From IMG/VR virus record IMGVR_UViG_2778261069_000008: DNA of 25,564 bases. One strand, given 5' to 3'. Positions 2,780 through 25,437 of this stretch are shown here, one piece after another (positions within the stretch are counted from its first letter, which is position 1; every line of letters starts with the position of its first letter). The DNA is from a virus. Its lineage: Duplodnaviria > Heunggongvirae > Uroviricota > Caudoviricetes. Below the pieces are notes generated by a model that did not search any database, was not told where the DNA came from, and saw nothing but the letters and a program-made list of their open reading frames with translations. The translations under genes were made by a program, and so were the position numbers.

Positions 2780-2854
<75 letters not shown>

Positions 2855-2857
2855 ATA

Positions 2858-2933
<76 letters not shown>

Positions 2934-2935
2934 AC

Positions 2936-3012
2936 TGGACCGCCACCGGGGACTCGAACCTCGCACACTCAACTTAAAGGGTTGACGCTCTTTCCTGATG
3001 AGCTAGTGGCGG
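2936..3012 (-). tRNA. Atypical tRNA-like gene (anticodon loop CCUUUAA, apparent anticodon UUU with C at position 33)
   Basis: Reverse complement CCGCCACTAGCTCATCAGGAAAGAGCGTCAACCCTTTAAGTTGAGTGTGCGAGGTTCGAGTCCCCGGTGGCGGTCCA; 7-bp acceptor, D-arm with GG, T-loop TTCGAGT, CCA end, but C33 instead of the universal U33 and an A-C mispair in the T-stem. Confidence 0.5.
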
Positions 3013-3013
3013 T

Positions 3014-3089
3014 TGGTGGCCCTTGCTGGATTTGAACCAGCGACCTGGCGATTATGAGTCGCTCGCTCTCACCACTGAGCTAAAGGGCC
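3014..3089 (-). tRNA. tRNA-Ile2-like (anticodon CAU; ileX/ileZ-type, could be annotated Met)
   Basis: Reverse complement GGCCCTTTAGCTCAGTGGTGAGAGCGAGCGACTCATAATCGCCAGGTCGCTGGTTCAAATCCAGCAAGGGCCACCA; loop CUCAUAA; strongly resembles E. coli tRNA-Ile2 as recalled. Confidence 0.8.
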
Positions 3090-4351: not shown

Positions 4352-5407
4352 TCATGCTTTCCACTTCAGGACACCCGAATTTCTCGCGTGCATTAAAAAA
4401 CGAATCAGCAACAACAGCTGGCTGCCGTGTTTTTCTTCAAAATCTTTTACCCCGGCGTGCAGTTCGTTATGACATTTGCGGCACAGCGGAATAACAAACA
4501 AATCATCAGCCTTTGTTCCCATCCCTCCCAGTCCATGACCAATGATGTGATGCGGATCATCTGCCTGATTACCGCACGTCATGCATTTCTGCGTTTTTAC
4601 CCAGCGCGTGTATACAGGCATCTCTTCCCGTTGTGGTTTCTGGCGCTGGAGATACTGAGCCGGTGACTCCGGATCAACGGCAATGCTGACCACCGTCTTT
4701 TCCTGTGGCGGGTTTTGCTGGTGGGCGTGAGGCAGCGGCGCAAGATTTTTTGTGCGCTGCTTCAGTATGCTGGTGGCGGTCTGCTCTCCCGGTACGATGT
4801 CGCTTTCACGGTACATTGAGCGGATTTTTTCCGCACGCAACCCCAGCGAACGACGTAATACCGCTTCCGGTAGCGCGTCCGCCACCTGATTGCGGACCGC
4901 CCACCAGGATAATTCAGCCAGAGATAATTCACGCTCCTGCGTACCGCTTATTGCGTGACCGATGGCGTCAATCATCCATGCTGACAGGTTTTGATGAGCA
5001 AGTTGCTCGAGTGATTCGGATGTCTGGTCACGCAGCTGGTTGTCGCAGTGCCAGCACAACACCATTGCGCCGGTACCATAACGGTGAATGACGGTTTCGC
5101 TGTGATGATAATCGCCGTGTGGCCACTGGCAGGATTTAATATGGCGCAACAGCCAGTCAGACAATGCACCAGCACCACCAGCAGCACGAATCACCCGTGC
5201 GTTACTGAAAAACGGCAGCAATGTTTTGTCTTCCACCAGCGGCTGGCGAACGGCAGGAACGACCCCGGACGGCAGATTACGCATGCTTTTCGGTTCCGGC
5301 TCCACCAGCACTCGAGGATTGTGAAATACCTGCATGGATTCACGACCTGGCTTAAGGACCACCAGCCCGAGTTCCGGTACCAGAACAGGTCGAAGTAATA
5401 CCCGCAC
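4352..5407 (-). CDS. DUF968-like prophage protein with C-terminal HNH-type Cys/His motif (YdfU-like)
   Basis: 351-aa ORF (GTG start in the track; true start may be internal); C-terminus CMTCGNQADDPHHIIGHGLGG...LCRKCHNELH; size and position match Qin YdfU-type proteins as I recall them. Confidence 0.55.
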   Translation of the reverse strand: MRVLLRPVLVPELGLVVLKPGRESMQVFHNPRVLVEPEPKSMRNLPSGVVPAVRQPLVEDKTLLPFFSNARVIRAAGGAGALSDWLLRHIKSCQWPHGDYHHSETVIHRYGTGAMVLCWHCDNQLRDQTSESLEQLAHQNLSAWMIDAIGHAISGTQERELSLAELSWWAVRNQVADALPEAVLRRSLGLRAEKIRSMYRESDIVPGEQTATSILKQRTKNLAPLPHAHQQNPPQEKTVVSIAVDPESPAQYLQRQKPQREEMPVYTRWVKTQKCMTCGNQADDPHHIIGHGLGGMGTKADDLFVIPLCRKCHNELHAGVKDFEEKHGSQLLLLIRFLMHARNSGVLKWKA

Positions 5408-5408
5408 G

Positions 5409-5816
5409 TTACCTCCAGATTCGTTGCTGGAATGTGCGGGACGGACGCGGTGGGCGTTCGGAGTAAGGAAGCCTGACGGAGATTATCCAGTGACGATAAT
5501 CGAGGCTGAGGGCTTTCTTAACCTCGTATCCGCGCCTGCGGTAACACTGAATTATCCATTCAGCCTGCTCTTCAGTGCATGGAGGATGCTGGAACCAGTC
5601 CGATTTGAATGCGTGAAAACGCCGTCCACACCTGCTGGCAAAGACGGCAGAATCATCAGAATAGTGTAATTTGGTATCGTGCGCCATCGGCTGTCTCTGC
5701 TGGCGCAGCAGGTGCCAGTTGTTCAGGCTGGCGTGCGAATTGTAAACCAGAATGCCAGGAAAAAACAAAACCCGCCGAAACGGGTTAAGTGCGGGTGCGT
5801 TGAGGATGCCTGACAC
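5409..5816 (-). CDS. Hypothetical nin-region protein
   Basis: 135-aa track ORF with non-ATG start; a plausible internal ATG start gives 92 aa (MAHDTKLHYSDD...); Cys/His-containing, no family recognised. Confidence 0.4.
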   Translation of the reverse strand: MSGILNAPALNPFRRVLFFPGILVYNSHASLNNWHLLRQQRQPMAHDTKLHYSDDSAVFASRCGRRFHAFKSDWFQHPPCTEEQAEWIIQCYRRRGYEVKKALSLDYRHWIISVRLPYSERPPRPSRTFQQRIWR

Positions 5817-5854: not shown

Positions 5855-6010
5855 TTACTCCTCAGGTTCGTAAGCTGTGAAGACAGCGACCTCCGTCTGG
5901 TCGGTTCGGATTCGTACCTCGCAGAGGTCTTTCCTCGTTACCAGTGCCGTCACTATGACGGTTAAACAGATGACGATCAGGGCGATTAACATCGCCTTTT
6001 GCTGCTTCAT
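5855..6010 (-). CDS. hok: Hok/Gef-family type I toxin
   Basis: MKQQKAMLIALIVICLTVIVTALVTRKDLCEVRIRTDQTEVAVFTAYEPEE, 51 aa with a single TM helix; matches HokD/RelF as recalled; the track ORF carries a 19-codon in-frame upstream extension. Confidence 0.85.
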   Translation of the reverse strand: MKQQKAMLIALIVICLTVIVTALVTRKDLCEVRIRTDQTEVAVFTAYEPEE

Positions 6011-6422
6011 AGCCTGCTTCTCCTTGCCTTTCGGCACGTAAGAGGCTAACCTACATGTGTCTAGCATGAAATTGGCCTCAGATTAATGTTAAGCGTCTTG
6101 CAGGACGCGTAATGTTAACTGGGGCTTTTCTCTATCTGCCGTTGGTGTTCATGCCCGAGGCAGATAGCCTCAAGCACCCACAGCCATTCTACTTAACTAC
6201 CGTTACCTCGCCAATATGAAATCAGTCAGAAAGGCGATCCATAAGAACAACAGCAAGGCAATAAATTGCCATTACAGCAGCAATAGCCAGCGCACATTTC
6301 AGAACCAGCACAATGACCTCCCACATTTGACGTACACGTGCATGATTCAATATGTGGCAACCTCCTCCTTGCTTCAATGTAAAATCAAGTATTGTTGTAT
6401 AACTATTTAACCAACTCCCTAT

Positions 6423-10418: not shown

Positions 10419-10844
10419 TTAGTGCATCACCACGGCATTTCCTGCCGGGCCACCGCGATTAATCTGGTTGAAACCAGCAATTGCCACCGCAATAAAATCA
10501 TCTGCATCCCTCACCAGCCGCTCCCGCGTCTCCAGCAGCTCCCGAAAATAGGCTGAACTGTGACTGCGCATTCGGGCCACCAGCAGAGGCGGCATTGCCT
10601 TTTCGATCGCAGGTAACAACGCCTGAATTTTTTTAACCGCATCAGGAGTGTCTTTCTCTACCCAGCGGAAAATTTTCTGGGTATTGCGAGCCAGGGCTTC
10701 AGGATGGCTGTTGTCGTACAGTTCAGGAAACGTCATACTCAACTCAAAATAAGCCCGGGTTATTTCAGCTGCCGGAACCTTTTCGCCATCAGGACGCGCC
10801 CAGACATTCATCGCTATGCGGATGTGTTCATGCTTGATTTTCAT
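10419..10844 (-). CDS. ydaT: YdaT-like protein of the Rac-type immunity region
   Basis: 141-aa ORF directly downstream of the ydaS-like gene; size and order match Rac ydaS-ydaT; assignment by position and recollection, not by motif. Confidence 0.5.
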   Translation of the reverse strand: MKIKHEHIRIAMNVWARPDGEKVPAAEITRAYFELSMTFPELYDNSHPEALARNTQKIFRWVEKDTPDAVKKIQALLPAIEKAMPPLLVARMRSHSSAYFRELLETRERLVRDADDFIAVAIAGFNQINRGGPAGNAVVMH

Positions 10845-10866: not shown

Positions 10867-11163
10867 TCAGGTATGATCAAATGAGGATTTGTTACTGTCA
10901 TTTAGTTGCTTCACTGACATATTCTGCGAATAACATGCCGAACGTCGTAAATATGACCAGTCAATATCAGGACGAAGTTCTTCGCACAGAACGTCACCTC
11001 TTGTTGCACGTTCAATTGCTGGACATCTCTCTGCAGGCAATTGACGTACCCCTTTGATCCATTGATTTACGCTTGGAGGTGATACACCTAAAAGCCTAGC
11101 CATTGCTGATTGCCCACCGACAACAGCACAAGCTCGCTTGAATGAATAGTTCTCTTTTTTCAT
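10867..11163 (-). CDS. ydaS: Cro-like HTH regulator (YdaS-like), divergent from the repressor
   Basis: 98 aa; HTH segment QSAMARLLGVSPPSVNQWIKG; divergently transcribed from racR across an operator-bearing intergenic region. Confidence 0.6.
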   Translation of the reverse strand: MKKENYSFKRACAVVGGQSAMARLLGVSPPSVNQWIKGVRQLPAERCPAIERATRGDVLCEELRPDIDWSYLRRSACYSQNMSVKQLNDSNKSSFDHT

Positions 11164-11286: not shown

Positions 11287-11763
11287 ATGCTTAGTGGTAA
11301 AGACTTAGGCCGAGCAATAGAGCAGGCCATTAACAAAAAAATCGCATCGGGATCCGTCAAATCAAAGGCGGAGGTCGCTCGCCACTTCAAAGTCCAACCA
11401 CCATCAATCTATGACTGGATTAAGAAAGGCTCCATAAGTAAAGATAAACTTCCAGAATTATGGCGTTTCTTTTCTGATGTTGTTGGTCCAGAGCATTGGG
11501 GGCTTAACGAATACCCCATACCAACCCCCACCAACTCAGATACAAAAAGTGAACTTTTAGACATAAACAACCTTTATCAGGCAGCCTCTGATGAAATAAG
11601 AGCGATTGTAGCTTTCCTGTTATCAGGAAATGCTACAGAACCAGACTGGGTTGACCACGATGTTCGCGCCTACATAGCAGCGATGGAAATGAAAGTTGGT
11701 AAGTATCTGAAAGTTCTAGAATCTGAACGGAAAAGCCAGAACATCACAAAAACTGGAACTTAA
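11287..11763 (+). CDS. racR: Prophage repressor, RacR-like
   Basis: 158 aa, MLSGKDLGRAIEQAINKKIASGSVKSKAEVARHFKVQPPSIYDWIKKG..., N-terminal HTH; matches RacR in length and sequence as recalled; flanked by operator repeats. Confidence 0.7.
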   Translation: MLSGKDLGRAIEQAINKKIASGSVKSKAEVARHFKVQPPSIYDWIKKGSISKDKLPELWRFFSDVVGPEHWGLNEYPIPTPTNSDTKSELLDINNLYQAASDEIRAIVAFLLSGNATEPDWVDHDVRAYIAAMEMKVGKYLKVLESERKSQNITKTGT

Positions 11764-11858
11764 ACTTATATGGTCTGACGGAAAACTCCTGGATTCCGTT
11801 ATTTAATCCCTCCCATCACTTTTTTCATTCGCATCACCTATTGGGTTACGCCCAGAAC

Positions 11859-11902
11859 ATTAGGCAAAGCCTATTGACAATCAATTAGGCATTACCTATA
11901 GT
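11859..11902 (+). promoter_or_regulatory. pL-like early-left promoter with overlapping operator repeats
   Basis: TTGACA (11874-11879) - 17 nt - TATAGT (11897-11902); two more TAGGC-N3-(G/A)CCTA operator-like repeats at 11859-11874 and 11884-11900 overlapping the -35 and spacer. Confidence 0.55.
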
Positions 11903-12079
11903 TCCAGCATGCCACCCACCCCGCCCCACAGCACGCAGGGCAATACTTCGAGTTACCAGGCAGTGGTCAGGGGTTAAGTAGCCAGCCCGAGGCGTAAGAA
12001 CATGACGGCAGGGTTCAACTTTAACTATGCAGCAGGTTTTTGTTCCGCTACCCCGGCGTTAAGGGGAAATGAGGTCAGC

Positions 12080-12232
12080 ATGGATACTATCGATCTTGGC
12101 AACAACGAATCTCTGGTGTACGGCGTGTTTCCCAACCAGGACGGCACGTTCACCGCGATGACGTATACCAAAAGTAAAACGTTTAAAACCGAAGCTGGCG
12201 CGCATCGCTGGTTAGCAAGAAACTCTGACTGA
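12080..12232 (+). CDS. Small early-left protein (YdaF-like)
   Basis: 50 aa from the internal Met with GAGG SD: MDTIDLGNNESLVYGVFPNQDGTFTAMTYTKSKTFKTEAGAHRWLARNSD; first gene after the pL-like promoter. Confidence 0.5.
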   Translation: MDTIDLGNNESLVYGVFPNQDGTFTAMTYTKSKTFKTEAGAHRWLARNSD

Positions 12233-12243
12233 TGAGGTTGACG

Positions 12244-12882
12244 ATGGAATTTAAAGATTTACCTACTTCAATCCAGGAGATTGCAGCACACACACTTCGT
12301 CATCGTCTGAACGAACTTGCATTGGAATCGGTAACGAAAAAAGACACTGATAATATGGCTCGTAATGTGCGCGATGCGTTTACCGGATTGTATTTCTGTG
12401 CGTCTGTAAATAAACACGACTCAGAGAGTGTGGCAAATAAAATTGCAGAAACGACAGCGCAAAACATCAATACGAAACCAACGGAAGAAGAAATTGATCA
12501 GTTTGCTCATGATGCTGGTTTAAAAAACAAGAAAGAAAAATCGCCATATGCGGGGAACATGTTTGTTTATGACAATCTCATCAGAATTCGTGGCGAAATT
12601 CCGGCGGAATACCTGGCAAGAGTCCATCAGGCATTGCTTAAAAATCTGGAAACAGAATTATTTGATGGCAACACTAACGGTTTCTTCATGGTATCAGGCC
12701 TTGAGAAAGACTGGGATGCAGAAAAACGCTGGAATGTTGCTACATGGTTATTCAGTAACAGAGCCGCTGCCCTGGAAGCTTCGGCATGTATTTGCGGCCT
12801 GTTCTTAACAGACCACAAATATAATCTGGATGTGTACAGTTATATTTACGCTGAACACGGTCCGCTCTGGATTGACTGGTAA
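12244..12882 (+). CDS. Hypothetical early-left cargo protein (212 aa), unrecognised
   Basis: ORF with GAGG SD 6 nt before the ATG at 12244 (alternative ATG at 12232 overlaps the upstream stop); no TM helices or motifs I recognise; occupies the position where lambdoid phages carry exclusion genes such as sieB. Confidence 0.55.
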   Translation: MEFKDLPTSIQEIAAHTLRHRLNELALESVTKKDTDNMARNVRDAFTGLYFCASVNKHDSESVANKIAETTAQNINTKPTEEEIDQFAHDAGLKNKKEKSPYAGNMFVYDNLIRIRGEIPAEYLARVHQALLKNLETELFDGNTNGFFMVSGLEKDWDAEKRWNVATWLFSNRAAALEASACICGLFLTDHKYNLDVYSYIYAEHGPLWIDW

Positions 12883-13092
12883 TTATAAGGAAACACCAGC
12901 AGGGCCGCGGCGACCAACAGAACGATTAAAATCAATAATGCCATTATAAAGGACATTATTTAATTTATCGTCGAATGCTGATTCTGTGAGCCTCAACTCT
13001 GAATGAGTTTTTAATAACCCTGATTGCCTGAGTTGATTTACTAGGCATTCAATCTGTTTTTCAATAAGCGGATTTCTTTTTTTGTTTGGCAT
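12883..13092 (-). CDS. Small basic protein (69 aa) convergent with the early-left operon
   Basis: Strong SD GGAGG 5-6 nt before the ATG at 13092; MPNKKRNPLIEKQIECLVNQLRQSGLLKTHSELRL...; its stop abuts the stop of the 212-aa gene. Confidence 0.45.
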   Translation of the reverse strand: MPNKKRNPLIEKQIECLVNQLRQSGLLKTHSELRLTESAFDDKLNNVLYNGIIDFNRSVGRRGPAGVSL

Positions 13093-13442
13093 TTTATCCT
13101 CCATTGAGGTTCTGGGTTAAAAATGGAGACCAACACGCTGTCACGTGTGGTCGTGCGCCGGACACGGATAAGAATCCGGTACTGACAGTTTACTGAAAGG
13201 ATATATCCCTGAAAAGCCAGGGCATAACGCGAAAGCACACGGCGAAATTGGTCTCTCTGTACGGTGTCGTTAAATTTAATTCGACCGTGCGCTTCCGGTT
13301 GTGGCACTCCGCGAAATGGCGCGGCGGTAAGTATGGCGGGGTTATTCCTTCCCCGTTGAGGACACCGGGTTGTCAGGTTGACCATACGCTTAAGTGACAA
13401 CCCCGCTACAACGCCCTCTGTTATCAATTTTCTGGTGGCGTT

Positions 13443-13485
13443 TGGCGGTATCAGTTTTACTCCGTGACTGCTCTGCCGCCCTTTT
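13443..13485 (+). terminator. Terminator-like hairpin upstream of the KilR-like gene
   Basis: GGCGG...CTGCCGCC arms followed by CTTTTT; irregular stem, weak call. Confidence 0.3.
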
Positions 13486-13659
13486 TAAAGTGAATTTTGT
13501 GATGCGGTGAATGCGGCTAAGCGCACGCGGAACAGTTAAAACCAAAAACAGTGTTATGGGTGGATTCTCTGTATCCGGCGTTAATTGTTAACTGGTTAAC
13601 GTCACCTGGAGGCACCAGGCACCGCATCAACAAAGTTCATTTGTAAAAATGGAGATAAT

Positions 13660-13882
13660 TATGATTGCTCATCACTTCGGAACTGATGAGATTCCTCGTC
13701 AGTGCGTGACTCCCGGTGATTATGTTATTCATAAAGGAAGAACATATATTGCTTCGGTAAACAACATTAAAAAACAACGGCTCTATATTCGTGATTTTTC
13801 CACACAACACTGTATTAAGGAAACCATGATTAAAGTCTTCCTTGGTCGTGATGGTTTACCTGTAAAAGCAGAGTCATGGTGA
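13660..13882 (+). CDS. Small early-left protein, possibly KilR-like
   Basis: 73 aa from the ATG preceded by [39 protein letters not shown]...; size and position match Rac kilR, but the sequence identity is not confirmed from memory. Confidence 0.5.
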
Positions 13883-25041: not shown

Positions 25042-25437
25042 AGGGCAACCTCCGATGAGTATTATTCATTACCACCACCAGAGGTTCCAATCTCATGGGT
25101 GGTGGAACCGGACGGGGTTGGAACTACCGGCCTCATCGACACCGGCGCGTCTTGCGACGCCCCCGCCCGGCCCACCATTGAGATGCAGCCAAGCGCACGA
25201 CACAAAAAAAGCGCTAACGCGCCTTGTGTCGTCGATGAAGTTAGCCAGGGGTTCCAATCCCGACGCCTGATTTTGCAGGCGCAGGGGAAGGATACTGCGA
25301 TGGATAAACAGTGGCAAGAATTAACAACAAAAAAAGAATGACGCAGAAGTCTGTCGAGATTTCAATCTATTATTGAACACCGCGTTCCAACAGGCATACA
25401 CTCCTCAGTGAGACTCAGACTGAGCCAGCCTGTGAAC

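Follow-up and report, generated by a model that had tools for sequence, protein, structure and literature searches.

A polymorphic convergent gene pair with a three-hairpin leader at the start of the early-left operon of Rac/Qin-type prophages

Introduction

The IMG/VR virus record IMGVR_UViG_2778261069_000008 (Caudoviricetes) is a stretch of 25,564 nucleotides (nt), referred to here as the window, that represents an Escherichia coli-type lambdoid prophage of the Rac/Qin kind. Close to the start of its early-left operon, a gene for a 212-amino acid (aa) protein on the plus strand meets, stop codon to stop codon, a gene for a 69-aa basic protein on the minus strand. These two genes are one allele of a polymorphic, recombination-shuffled convergent pair found at this position in Rac/Qin-type prophages. 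A preliminary description, made from the sequence alone, had treated them together with a preceding 50-aa gene as an unrecognised cargo module. The real unit is smaller: an acidic C-terminal domain of about 112 aa, which is part of the 212-aa protein, and a basic protein of 64-69 aa preceded by a structured leader. The remainder of the 212-aa protein and the 50-aa gene are not part of the coupled unit. The leader and the polymorphism of the locus were absent from that description.

The convergent pair

The open reading frames (ORFs) are laid out as first described. The 212-aa gene occupies 12244-12882 (+), with its TAA stop codon at 12880-12882, and the 69-aa gene occupies 12883-13092 (-), with its ATG at 13092-13090 and its stop at 12883-12885, so that the two stops are adjacent with no spacer. 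A GGAGG Shine-Dalgarno (SD) sequence precedes the ATG of the small gene at a 5-nt spacing (minus strand ...ATGGAGGATAAAATG). Both genes lie downstream of a pL-like sigma-70 promoter at 11874-11902 (+), which a consensus scan matches at 11 of 12 positions (TTGACA-17-TATAGT). This agrees with the earlier account, and the surrounding DNA is 91.6% identical (blastn) to the racR-ydaG intergenic region of K-12 Rac. The promoter is predicted to drive the early-left operon, in which case the whole module would be read through from pL.

Alignment of relatives divides the 212-aa protein into three parts. These are an N-terminal domain (N-domain; aa 1-65, 12244-12438 (+)) with the pattern MEFKDLP...NMxRNVRDAF, a charged linker with insertions and deletions (aa 66-99, 12439-12540 (+)), and a well-conserved C-terminal domain (C-domain; aa 100-212 and the stop codon, 12541-12882 (+)) that is acidic, with an isoelectric point (pI) of 4.9. 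The N-domain occurs as two very different alleles, each joined to the same C-domain. The full protein matches phrog_2151, a family of unknown function, and four further PHROGs cover only its first 50-75 residues. In an exhaustive search of 1.84 billion representative proteins, the N-domain alone was common to about 40 representatives of 42-201 aa with differing C-terminal tails, with matches confined to positions 1-35/93. In the same search the C-domain appeared outside the 212-aa type in only two further contexts. One is P0177 (286 aa), in which a different N-terminus is followed by a helix-turn-helix (HTH) domain (HTH_3, PF01381, 26.2 bits) and then the C-domain; the other is P0190 (220 aa), which has the layout of P0177 without the HTH. 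The ratio of nonsynonymous to synonymous substitution rates (dN/dS) is 0.32-0.66 in the N-domain and 0.17-0.25 in the C-domain.

The 69-aa protein, which matches phrog_4274 (also of unknown function), has a pI of 9.7, a grand average of hydropathy of -0.53 and no hydrophobic stretch. Throughout the family the small proteins are basic (pI 9.4-9.9) and the C-domains acidic (pI 4.7-4.9), which gives the two a complementary charge. Its homologues form 36 clusters and conserve an SGLLK turn and a C-terminal RRGPAGVxL tail. Of the six frames, that of the small gene itself has the lowest dN/dS (0.24-0.25); the value is 0.35-0.40 in the opposite-strand frame that shares third codon positions and above 1 in the other four. 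Diverged homologues at 46-52% identity retain the length, the motifs and the SD. Because of this low own-frame dN/dS and these same-length homologues, the 69-aa ORF is not a chance ORF but a coding gene. Both it and the C-domain are under purifying selection. A run of seven adenines (A7) lies on its minus strand at 13077-13083, codons 4-6. Eight IMG/VR loci of differing backgrounds have six adenines (A6) instead, giving a 17-aa product; these alleles are either homopolymer sequencing errors or a recurrent or inherited slip that silences the gene.

The two genes have been kept together through considerable divergence. In the E. coli architecture the 212-aa and 69-aa genes meet with a 0-nt gap. 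In Salmonella (L005-L007) the C-domain stands alone on a previously uncalled ORF (81% identity) and faces a 69-aa gene (77%) across a 3-nt gap; a gene of its own, 119 aa long and located to the other side, encodes the N-domain. P0177 and P0190 represent two diverged lineages of the Salmonella type. The C-domain of P0177 (39% identity) is convergent with a 64-aa gene (46%) that it overlaps by 11 nt, and that of the P0190 type (35%) with a 69-aa gene (52%) at an overlap of 53 nt. Thus in all four architectures the pair is convergent and abutting or overlapping. One Salmonella prophage (L005) carries two tandem units of leader and small gene, at 5225-5508 and 5914-6210, each convergent with its own partner: a 64-aa MSEQELK gene with the 119-aa N-domain protein, and a 69-aa gene with the standalone C-domain.

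Within E. coli, a match was found in 600 of 5,426 complete genomes (11%), and in 594 of the 600 the DNA of the C-domain and of the 69-aa gene occurred together. One of the 600 is an O157:H7 laboratory strain with an identical 69-aa protein. Lysogens that carry the pair include O157:H7 EDL933/ATCC 43894 (proteins WP_000394548 and WP_001133037) and strain 377323_2f. In a matrix of pairings the 69-aa family stood opposite the C-domain in every case, counted as a lower bound over at least 34 distinct DNA variants. When three contigs that end early (L046, L069, L090) are subtracted from the 83 E. coli-type loci, about 80 are informative, and about 67 of these have both genes intact. Neither protein was found in the species-representative genomes of GTDB.

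Database and fold searches provide little guide to function. Neither protein, nor its alignment, gave a usable match in Pfam, NCBIfam, PADLOC or the PDB sequences, and the lack of a recognisable family noted earlier for the 212-aa protein therefore holds apart from its PHROG. A full-length AlphaFold2 (AF2) model of this protein was poor (mean predicted local distance difference test score, pLDDT, of 61) and was set aside; the linker is helical in it at low confidence (pLDDT about 52-68). The C-domain alone gave a confident AF2 model (pLDDT 79.6, predicted template modelling score 0.73) with the predicted topology beta-beta-alpha-beta-beta-alpha-beta, a two-layer alpha/beta sandwich. Fold searches with it returned generic two-layer alpha/beta matches only. 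The best Foldseek matches were Prp-like (E 7.6e-3 in PDB and 5.7e-4 in BFVD, template modelling scores 0.35-0.44). A Prp-like cysteine protease was ruled out because the family alignments have no invariant Cys or His, and hence no catalytic dyad. No literature was found on the function of the pair proteins or of DUF1391, the family of the 50-aa protein; papers on ydfA, ydfB and ydfC treat the Qin alleles only.

Exchange of the locus between prophages

Comparison with Qin of K-12 delimits the exchanged segment. By blastn, Qin homology covers only 12042-12225 and 13152-13641, and these flanks are 92-93% identical. Since the homology stops at 12225 and resumes at 13152, positions 12226-13151 of the window replace ydfB-ydfC. 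The same slot in Rac holds sieB, which is convergent with ydaF at a 4-nt overlap. The block shared with the Salmonella lineage, 12524-13179, takes in the C-domain, the small gene and some 87 nt upstream of the latter. The borders of the cassette fall within conserved DNA, that of the N-domain to the left of the variable region and the leader to its right. Such a layout, in which conserved flanks enclose a variable middle (C-terminal part and small gene), is expected of a cassette exchanged by recombination. The preliminary description had held that this slot typically carries exclusion, abortive-infection or host-takeover genes. Its content does vary between Qin, Rac and related prophages, but neither pair protein resembles an exclusion, abortive-infection or toxin-antitoxin family in PADLOC, Pfam or NCBIfam.

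The 50-aa gene (12080-12232 (+)) belongs to the conserved backbone and is outside the variable cassette. Its product is a DUF1391 protein (PF07151, E 3.5e-29, 100.6 bits against a gathering cutoff of 27.3), 94% identical to YdfA of Qin and 82% to YdaF of Rac, and not unrecognised cargo as had been proposed. An in-frame upstream ATG would lengthen this ORF to 76 aa (12002-12079 (+)); the 50-aa form is the one annotated in relatives and in RefSeq.

The leader of the small gene

When the regions upstream of the small gene were compared on its own strand across four lineages, a 92-nt leader with three hairpins was found, at 13090-13181 (-) in the window. Hairpin 1 (HP1, 13179-13158 (-)) is invariant, CCGGAU...GUCCGG. 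Hairpin 2 (HP2, 13151-13129 (-)) covaries; it is always a hairpin, formed by at least six different sequences. In hairpin 3 (HP3) CUCCAU at 13128-13123 (-) pairs with AUGGAG at 13104-13099 (-), within which the SD lies. The general layout of HP3 is CUCCAU, then AUGGAGG 15-20 nt later, then the ATG at a constant distance. All three hairpins are predicted by RNAalifold. The SD of the 69-aa gene is strong, yet it is predicted to be paired in the conserved HP3, and the CUCCAU:AUGGAG pairing, a predicted sequestration of the SD, is kept in 28 distinct full leaders. In the minimum free energy fold of the single sequence, CAUUUU pairs with AAAAUG instead of HP3; as modelled, either pairing would occlude the translation start. 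HP2 occurs in two mirror forms, GACCACACG-TGACAG-CGTGTTGGTC and GACAACACG-CTGTCA-CGTGTGGTC (window 13129-13151 (-); L106, L120, L141, L178), of which the second equals the first in reverse complement with one C missing, giving the impression of an inverted hairpin.

A covariance model of the leader (R1) scores 112 bits in the window at 13090-13181 (-) and has 101 matches in 100 fetched loci, the diverged lineages L008 and L011 included. It also matches twice in Salmonella L005 and once in phage phiP27, and it picks up a relic in K-12 Qin (L004 2546-2632 (-), 31.6 bits, just downstream of ydfC); Rac (L003) has no match. A weak match elsewhere in the window, 21488-21573 (-), is probably due to chance (11.8 bits, E 0.22). 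Pairing was kept in 93% of alignment cells compared with 82% in shuffles and 31-44% in slid controls, and cells with double changes numbered 49 compared with 10 in controls; the alignment behind these figures was fitted to the covariance model. The covariation of HP3 is inflated by Qin-type relics, and HP3 is essentially invariant in full leaders. G-U pairs outnumber A-C pairs by 35 to 4, which favours the strand of the small gene.

Several known kinds of element were considered for this RNA. An antitermination element on the pL strand, like put of HK022, is disfavoured by the invariant U-G pair in HP1 and by the 35:4 ratio of G-U to A-C pairs. No Rfam covariance model matched 13090-13181 at its gathering threshold, nor did any when E values up to 5 were allowed. 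This rules out AgvB, which is an Rfam family according to the Pas small RNA (sRNA) preprint. The Pas sRNAs themselves are ruled out by position, as they sit in late prophage regions.

A promoter is predicted immediately upstream of the leader, with a -35 hexamer TTTTCA at 13215-13210 (-), a 17-nt spacer and a -10 hexamer TAAACT at 13192-13187 (-) (8 of 12 consensus positions). Five upstream contexts that otherwise have nothing in common each show a -10-like hexamer whose end lies 6-7 nt before HP1; for example, the phiP27-type context has TTGAGA-17-GATAAT, 10 of 12 consensus positions. From this constant distance the transcription start is predicted at the foot of HP1, about 13181-13180, and the element is read as a 5' untranslated region.

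Alternative genes behind the same leader

The leader is not restricted to the 69-aa family. In prophages of Enterobacterales it precedes at least ten unrelated small ORFs at a constant distance. Besides the 69-aa family these include a 64-aa family, a Cys-rich family of 61-80 aa, a 57-aa family, two related families of 59 and 61 aa, a 75-aa family, a 104-aa protein, a family of 94-100 aa with a borderline match to GhoS (PF11080, 21.2 bits, at the cutoff) and a proline-rich peptide of 30-33 aa. All of these families are PHROGs of unknown function. In PADLOC eight alternative cargo proteins had no match, and P0177 had only generic HTH matches. The gene convergent with the small ORF in E. coli-type loci usually has the MEFKDLP N-domain at its start, and its C-terminus mostly changes with the family of the small ORF.

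The HP1 pattern is present in at least 120 IMG/VR contigs, and among species-representative genomes full leaders were found for Edwardsiella (two species), Pluralibacter and Raoultella, whereas Escherichia albertii has only a leader relic of the Qin type (41.7 bits). An assembly labelled Chryseobacterium sp. 18061 (L216) contains a full leader of the enterobacterial type with the proline-rich ORF, probably a case of contamination or mislabelling. This peptide, M[LR]INQFG...PDGQVPYRPxPxPxP, follows the leader in L215, L216, L218, L219, L111, L171 and L176 (Edwardsiella, Raoultella and IMG/VR contigs); by eye only, it resembles proline-rich antimicrobial peptides. In phiP27, P27p09 (L092 2396-2575 (-)) is annotated as a 59-aa ORF starting with GVS, and relatives have a 75-aa version. 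P27p09 probably starts instead at the ATG positioned by the leader and is then only 35 aa long (MINEEQLEKE...).

Possible functions of the pair

The best explanation overall, given a little less than an even chance on sequence evidence, is that the two genes encode an antagonistic protein pair that is reciprocally expressed, with the small gene throttled by its leader. The small gene would be a transcription unit of its own, antisense within the pL operon. In the lysogen RacR would keep pL off, and the small protein would be made at a low level limited by the leader. Upon induction, transcription from pL would cross the small gene and its leader, leading to transcriptional interference, a fully complementary RNA and synthesis of the C-domain protein. 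Since pL reads antisense through the small gene, expression would be reciprocal. Intrinsic terminators were found neither between the 212-aa and 69-aa genes nor anywhere in 11700-13700 on either strand; the transcripts must therefore overlap, and those of the small gene would enter the coding region of the C-domain.

At the protein level the two products may be a cognate binding pair in which the basic small protein neutralises the acidic C-domain, or the reverse. This antagonistic binding is the least certain part of the proposal. In one version the small protein would serve during lysogeny as a safety or exclusion factor against the early protein, whether leaked from the prophage itself or made by a superinfecting relative. 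In the other it would be an effector expressed in the lysogen, and the early protein a cognate "escape" partner that frees the lytic cycle of the phage itself. In lambda and P22, SieB is an exclusion factor expressed by the lysogen, and the phage makes an escape factor, Esc. The second version would be analogous to SieB/Esc of lambda, and the sieB-ydaF arrangement of Rac, taken with this logic, makes a reading as exclusion plus escape attractive.

Several observations weigh against an antagonistic pair throttled by its leader. Pairing is not strictly one-to-one, as two different small genes are found with the same C-terminal tail family. In several cases the variable C-terminus is no more than a brief read-through into antisense sequence of the small gene. 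Contact between the C-domain and the 69-aa protein is only inferred, and the fold of the C-domain is generic. HP3 has only 6 bp and the occlusion of the SD is a prediction, as are the promoter and transcription start of the small gene. In Qin-type prophages the promoter and HP1 are kept in 39 sequence variants (among L099-L183) without SD or ORF. They are either a relic or a sign that HP1 has a role of its own, and because they persist without an ORF the leader may have another role. Neither protein was found by tblastn in 50,697 deposited phage genomes, and the carriers may be mostly defective prophages. Finally, an intact 211-212-aa gene stands beside a deleted or frameshifted small gene in 9 of the roughly 80 informative loci (about 11%, a lower bound), which implies that the partner is not lethal without the small gene in the lysogen. 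Three of the nine have a 162-bp deletion (window 12929-13090) and six the A7-to-A6 frameshift, which may be a sequencing error. Among the other broken loci, a frameshifted large gene accompanies an intact small one in one case, both genes are broken in two, and both C-termini are altered at the junction in one.

Many of these points would also fit two independent morons that are merely linked: a stand-alone 69-aa gene, expressed in the lysogen from its own promoter and leader, and an unrelated early C-domain, which would travel together only through touching 3' ends and recombination in the conserved flanks. The use of one leader by at least ten unrelated ORFs, the tail family shared by two small genes, the survival of either gene when the other is broken and the failure to find known interaction domains all agree with simple linkage. 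It is nevertheless considered unlikely. The linkage has outlasted divergence to 35-39% identity in one protein and 46-52% in the other, and the tight convergent geometry has been kept through three changes of N-terminal architecture. Moreover, N-domain and C-domain are visibly reshuffled at the same locus, so that recombination has been frequent enough to have separated unlinked functions. For these reasons antagonism is preferred to mere linkage.

A regulatory pair is a weaker candidate still. The 69-aa protein would be a nucleic-acid-binding regulator of the lysogen and the C-domain an oligomerisation or sensor domain, together tuning early-left expression with no attack on host or phage; DicF, a DicB remnant, Kil and the RecE-like exonuclease are the targets proposed. 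The high pI and conserved RRGPAG tail of the small protein, the HTH_3 domain between N-terminus and C-domain in P0177, and an inverted repeat that overlaps the upstream region of the small gene itself would all suit such a role. However, searches with the small protein detected no DNA-binding family, neither the E. coli form nor the P0190-type and standalone Salmonella forms have the HTH, and the inverted repeats behave as RNA hairpins, with covariation and G-U pairs on one strand.

The preliminary description had compared the convergent arrangement to coupled toxin/antidote pairs. Coupling as such is not fortuitous, the convergence being kept in four architectures down to 35-52% identity. A strict toxin with an essential antitoxin is very unlikely, since about 11% of loci combine a broken small gene with an intact large one; as a caveat, the large gene is repressed in lysogens and the frameshifts may be sequencing errors. 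In such an addiction system the C-domain of the 212-aa protein would be the toxin and the 69-aa protein a labile antitoxin, with antisense RNA as extra control. The pair does look like one in that it consists of two genes with products of opposite charge, one of them small. Convergent 3' overlaps are known from some type I systems, a protease tag may speculatively be seen in the conserved C-terminal tail, and the borderline GhoS-like family lies behind the same leader. Yet Pfam, NCBIfam and PADLOC gave no toxin or antitoxin family, the convergent genes form no operon, and the putative toxin, under the repressor-controlled pL, would be silent just where addiction would have to act.

That the 69-aa ORF is untranslated, its transcript or leader acting as a cis-antisense RNA on the pL transcript, is highly improbable: the promoter and HP1 that persist without an ORF in Qin-type prophages, the predicted occlusion of the SD and the frameshifted alleles would fit, but the frame-specific dN/dS values, the homologues that keep length, motifs and SD at 46-52% identity, and an SD and ATG at constant distance behind the leader in 28 distinct variants speak for a protein.

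Returning to an antagonistic pair, a broader extension of it can be put forward tentatively, as a possibility somewhat on the doubtful side. The shared leader would express alternative small proteins from repressed prophages of temperate Enterobacterales phages, each matched to the variable C-domain of the early protein on the opposite strand, as a polymorphic self/non-self system driven by competition between related phages. The small protein of the lysogen would disable the cognate early protein of a superinfecting relative, and convergent transcription would flip the balance at induction. Alternatively, the early domain would be an escape factor for the lysogen-phase effector of the phage itself.

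Relation to known systems

The conserved pairing and the shared leader appear to be undescribed in Rfam, Pfam and the literature searched. The closest counterpart by position is ydaF/sieB of Rac, found in the same prophage type and slot, with an opposite-strand gene past a RacR-controlled promoter and a DUF1391 gene. Neither pair protein is similar to SieB (BLASTP; no Pfam match). Rac SieB has 162 aa, in contrast to the soluble, basic 69-aa protein, and Rac sieB lacks the three-hairpin leader. The ydfA-ydfB-ydfC-dicF-dicB region of Qin has the same order of ydfA, variable slot and dicF followed by division inhibitors; ydfB and ydfC, however, are co-oriented with pL and unrelated in sequence, and only a relic of the leader is present.

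Type I toxin-antitoxin loci such as par (Fst/RNAII), TxpA/RatA and BsrG/SR4, and the leaders of hok, tisB and zorO, offer a parallel in their convergent units, overlapping 3' ends and a leader in which a small ORF has its ribosome-binding site masked (here a prediction). In contrast to type I toxins, which are small hydrophobic membrane peptides, the 69-aa protein is hydrophilic and basic. The antisense partner is a coding mRNA (dN/dS 0.17-0.25) rather than a small RNA, and the leader matches no Rfam family. The type II systems share with the pair the form of a prophage-borne two-gene unit with a small partner of opposite charge, possibly inhibitor and target. The pair differs in being convergent rather than bicistronic, in lacking family matches and in that the small gene is dispensable in several loci.

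Polymorphic toxin/immunity systems (CdiA-CT/CdiI, Rhs-CT/RhsI) also combine a conserved N-terminus with a variable C-terminus and a co-varying small gene, exchanged by recombination in conserved flanks. Here, though, the tails co-vary with the small-gene family mostly, with one exception, and several tails are short antisense read-throughs. No secretion, delivery or toxin domain was recognised, the proteins are tiny, the small gene is convergent and pairing is not strictly one-to-one. Phage morons resemble the small gene in its predicted promoter, in its insertion between backbone genes at a fixed site whose content varies, and in that it is presumably expressed from a repressed prophage. They differ in that no terminator was found here, the gene is antisense within an operon, and a dedicated leader is common to unrelated cargo. 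To our knowledge, a dedicated structured leader common to many cargo ORFs is not a described feature of morons.

Other features of the prophage

The immunity region upstream of the pair contains ydaT (10419-10844 (-)), ydaS (10867-11163 (-)) and a RacR homologue of 158 aa (11287-11763 (+)). Downstream, a full-length DicF sRNA (Rfam, 76.4 bits) lies at 13430-13481 (+), about 340 nt past the module; because it is on the pL strand, the module is inside the DicF precursor transcript. A KilR homologue and an 823-aa RecE-like exonuclease are also encoded in the early region. At 13493-13634 (+) there is an STnc100-like match below threshold (38 bits against a gathering score of 47), in a segment homologous to the part of Rac that holds the annotated sRNA kilS.

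Further from the pair, a sok antitoxin RNA at 6005-6179 (-) (115 bits) indicates a hok/sok locus within the same prophage. The prophage has a cluster of four tRNA genes at 2783-3089 (-). Two further tRNAs are found at 17820-17906 (-) and 18898-18970 (+), the first probably the tRNA-Ser attachment site adjoining mtfA, by analogy with L001. At the right end of the window, matches to EFASI RNA (22681-22809 (-)), C4 antisense RNA (25095-25182 (-)) and isrK (25204-25282 (-)) point to a second mobile element past the prophage end.

Implications

DicF, DicB and Kil affect cell division, phage resistance and, in enterohaemorrhagic E. coli, virulence regulation, and the convergent module lies directly upstream of them. 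Effects of such prophage products are documented for DicF (PMC5069750). Two "hypothetical proteins" at this site become a defined unit, made up of a domain and its partner together with a leader and a predicted start site, and the same structured leader stands before at least ten unrelated dark small proteins in prophages of Escherichia, Salmonella, Edwardsiella, Raoultella and Pluralibacter. If the pairs are antagonistic, they would be a new source of genes for phage-phage and phage-host conflict, with coupling at the protein level and at the antisense level in one cassette. If they are not, the leader would still be a candidate for a new cis-regulatory RNA of genes expressed in the lysogen.

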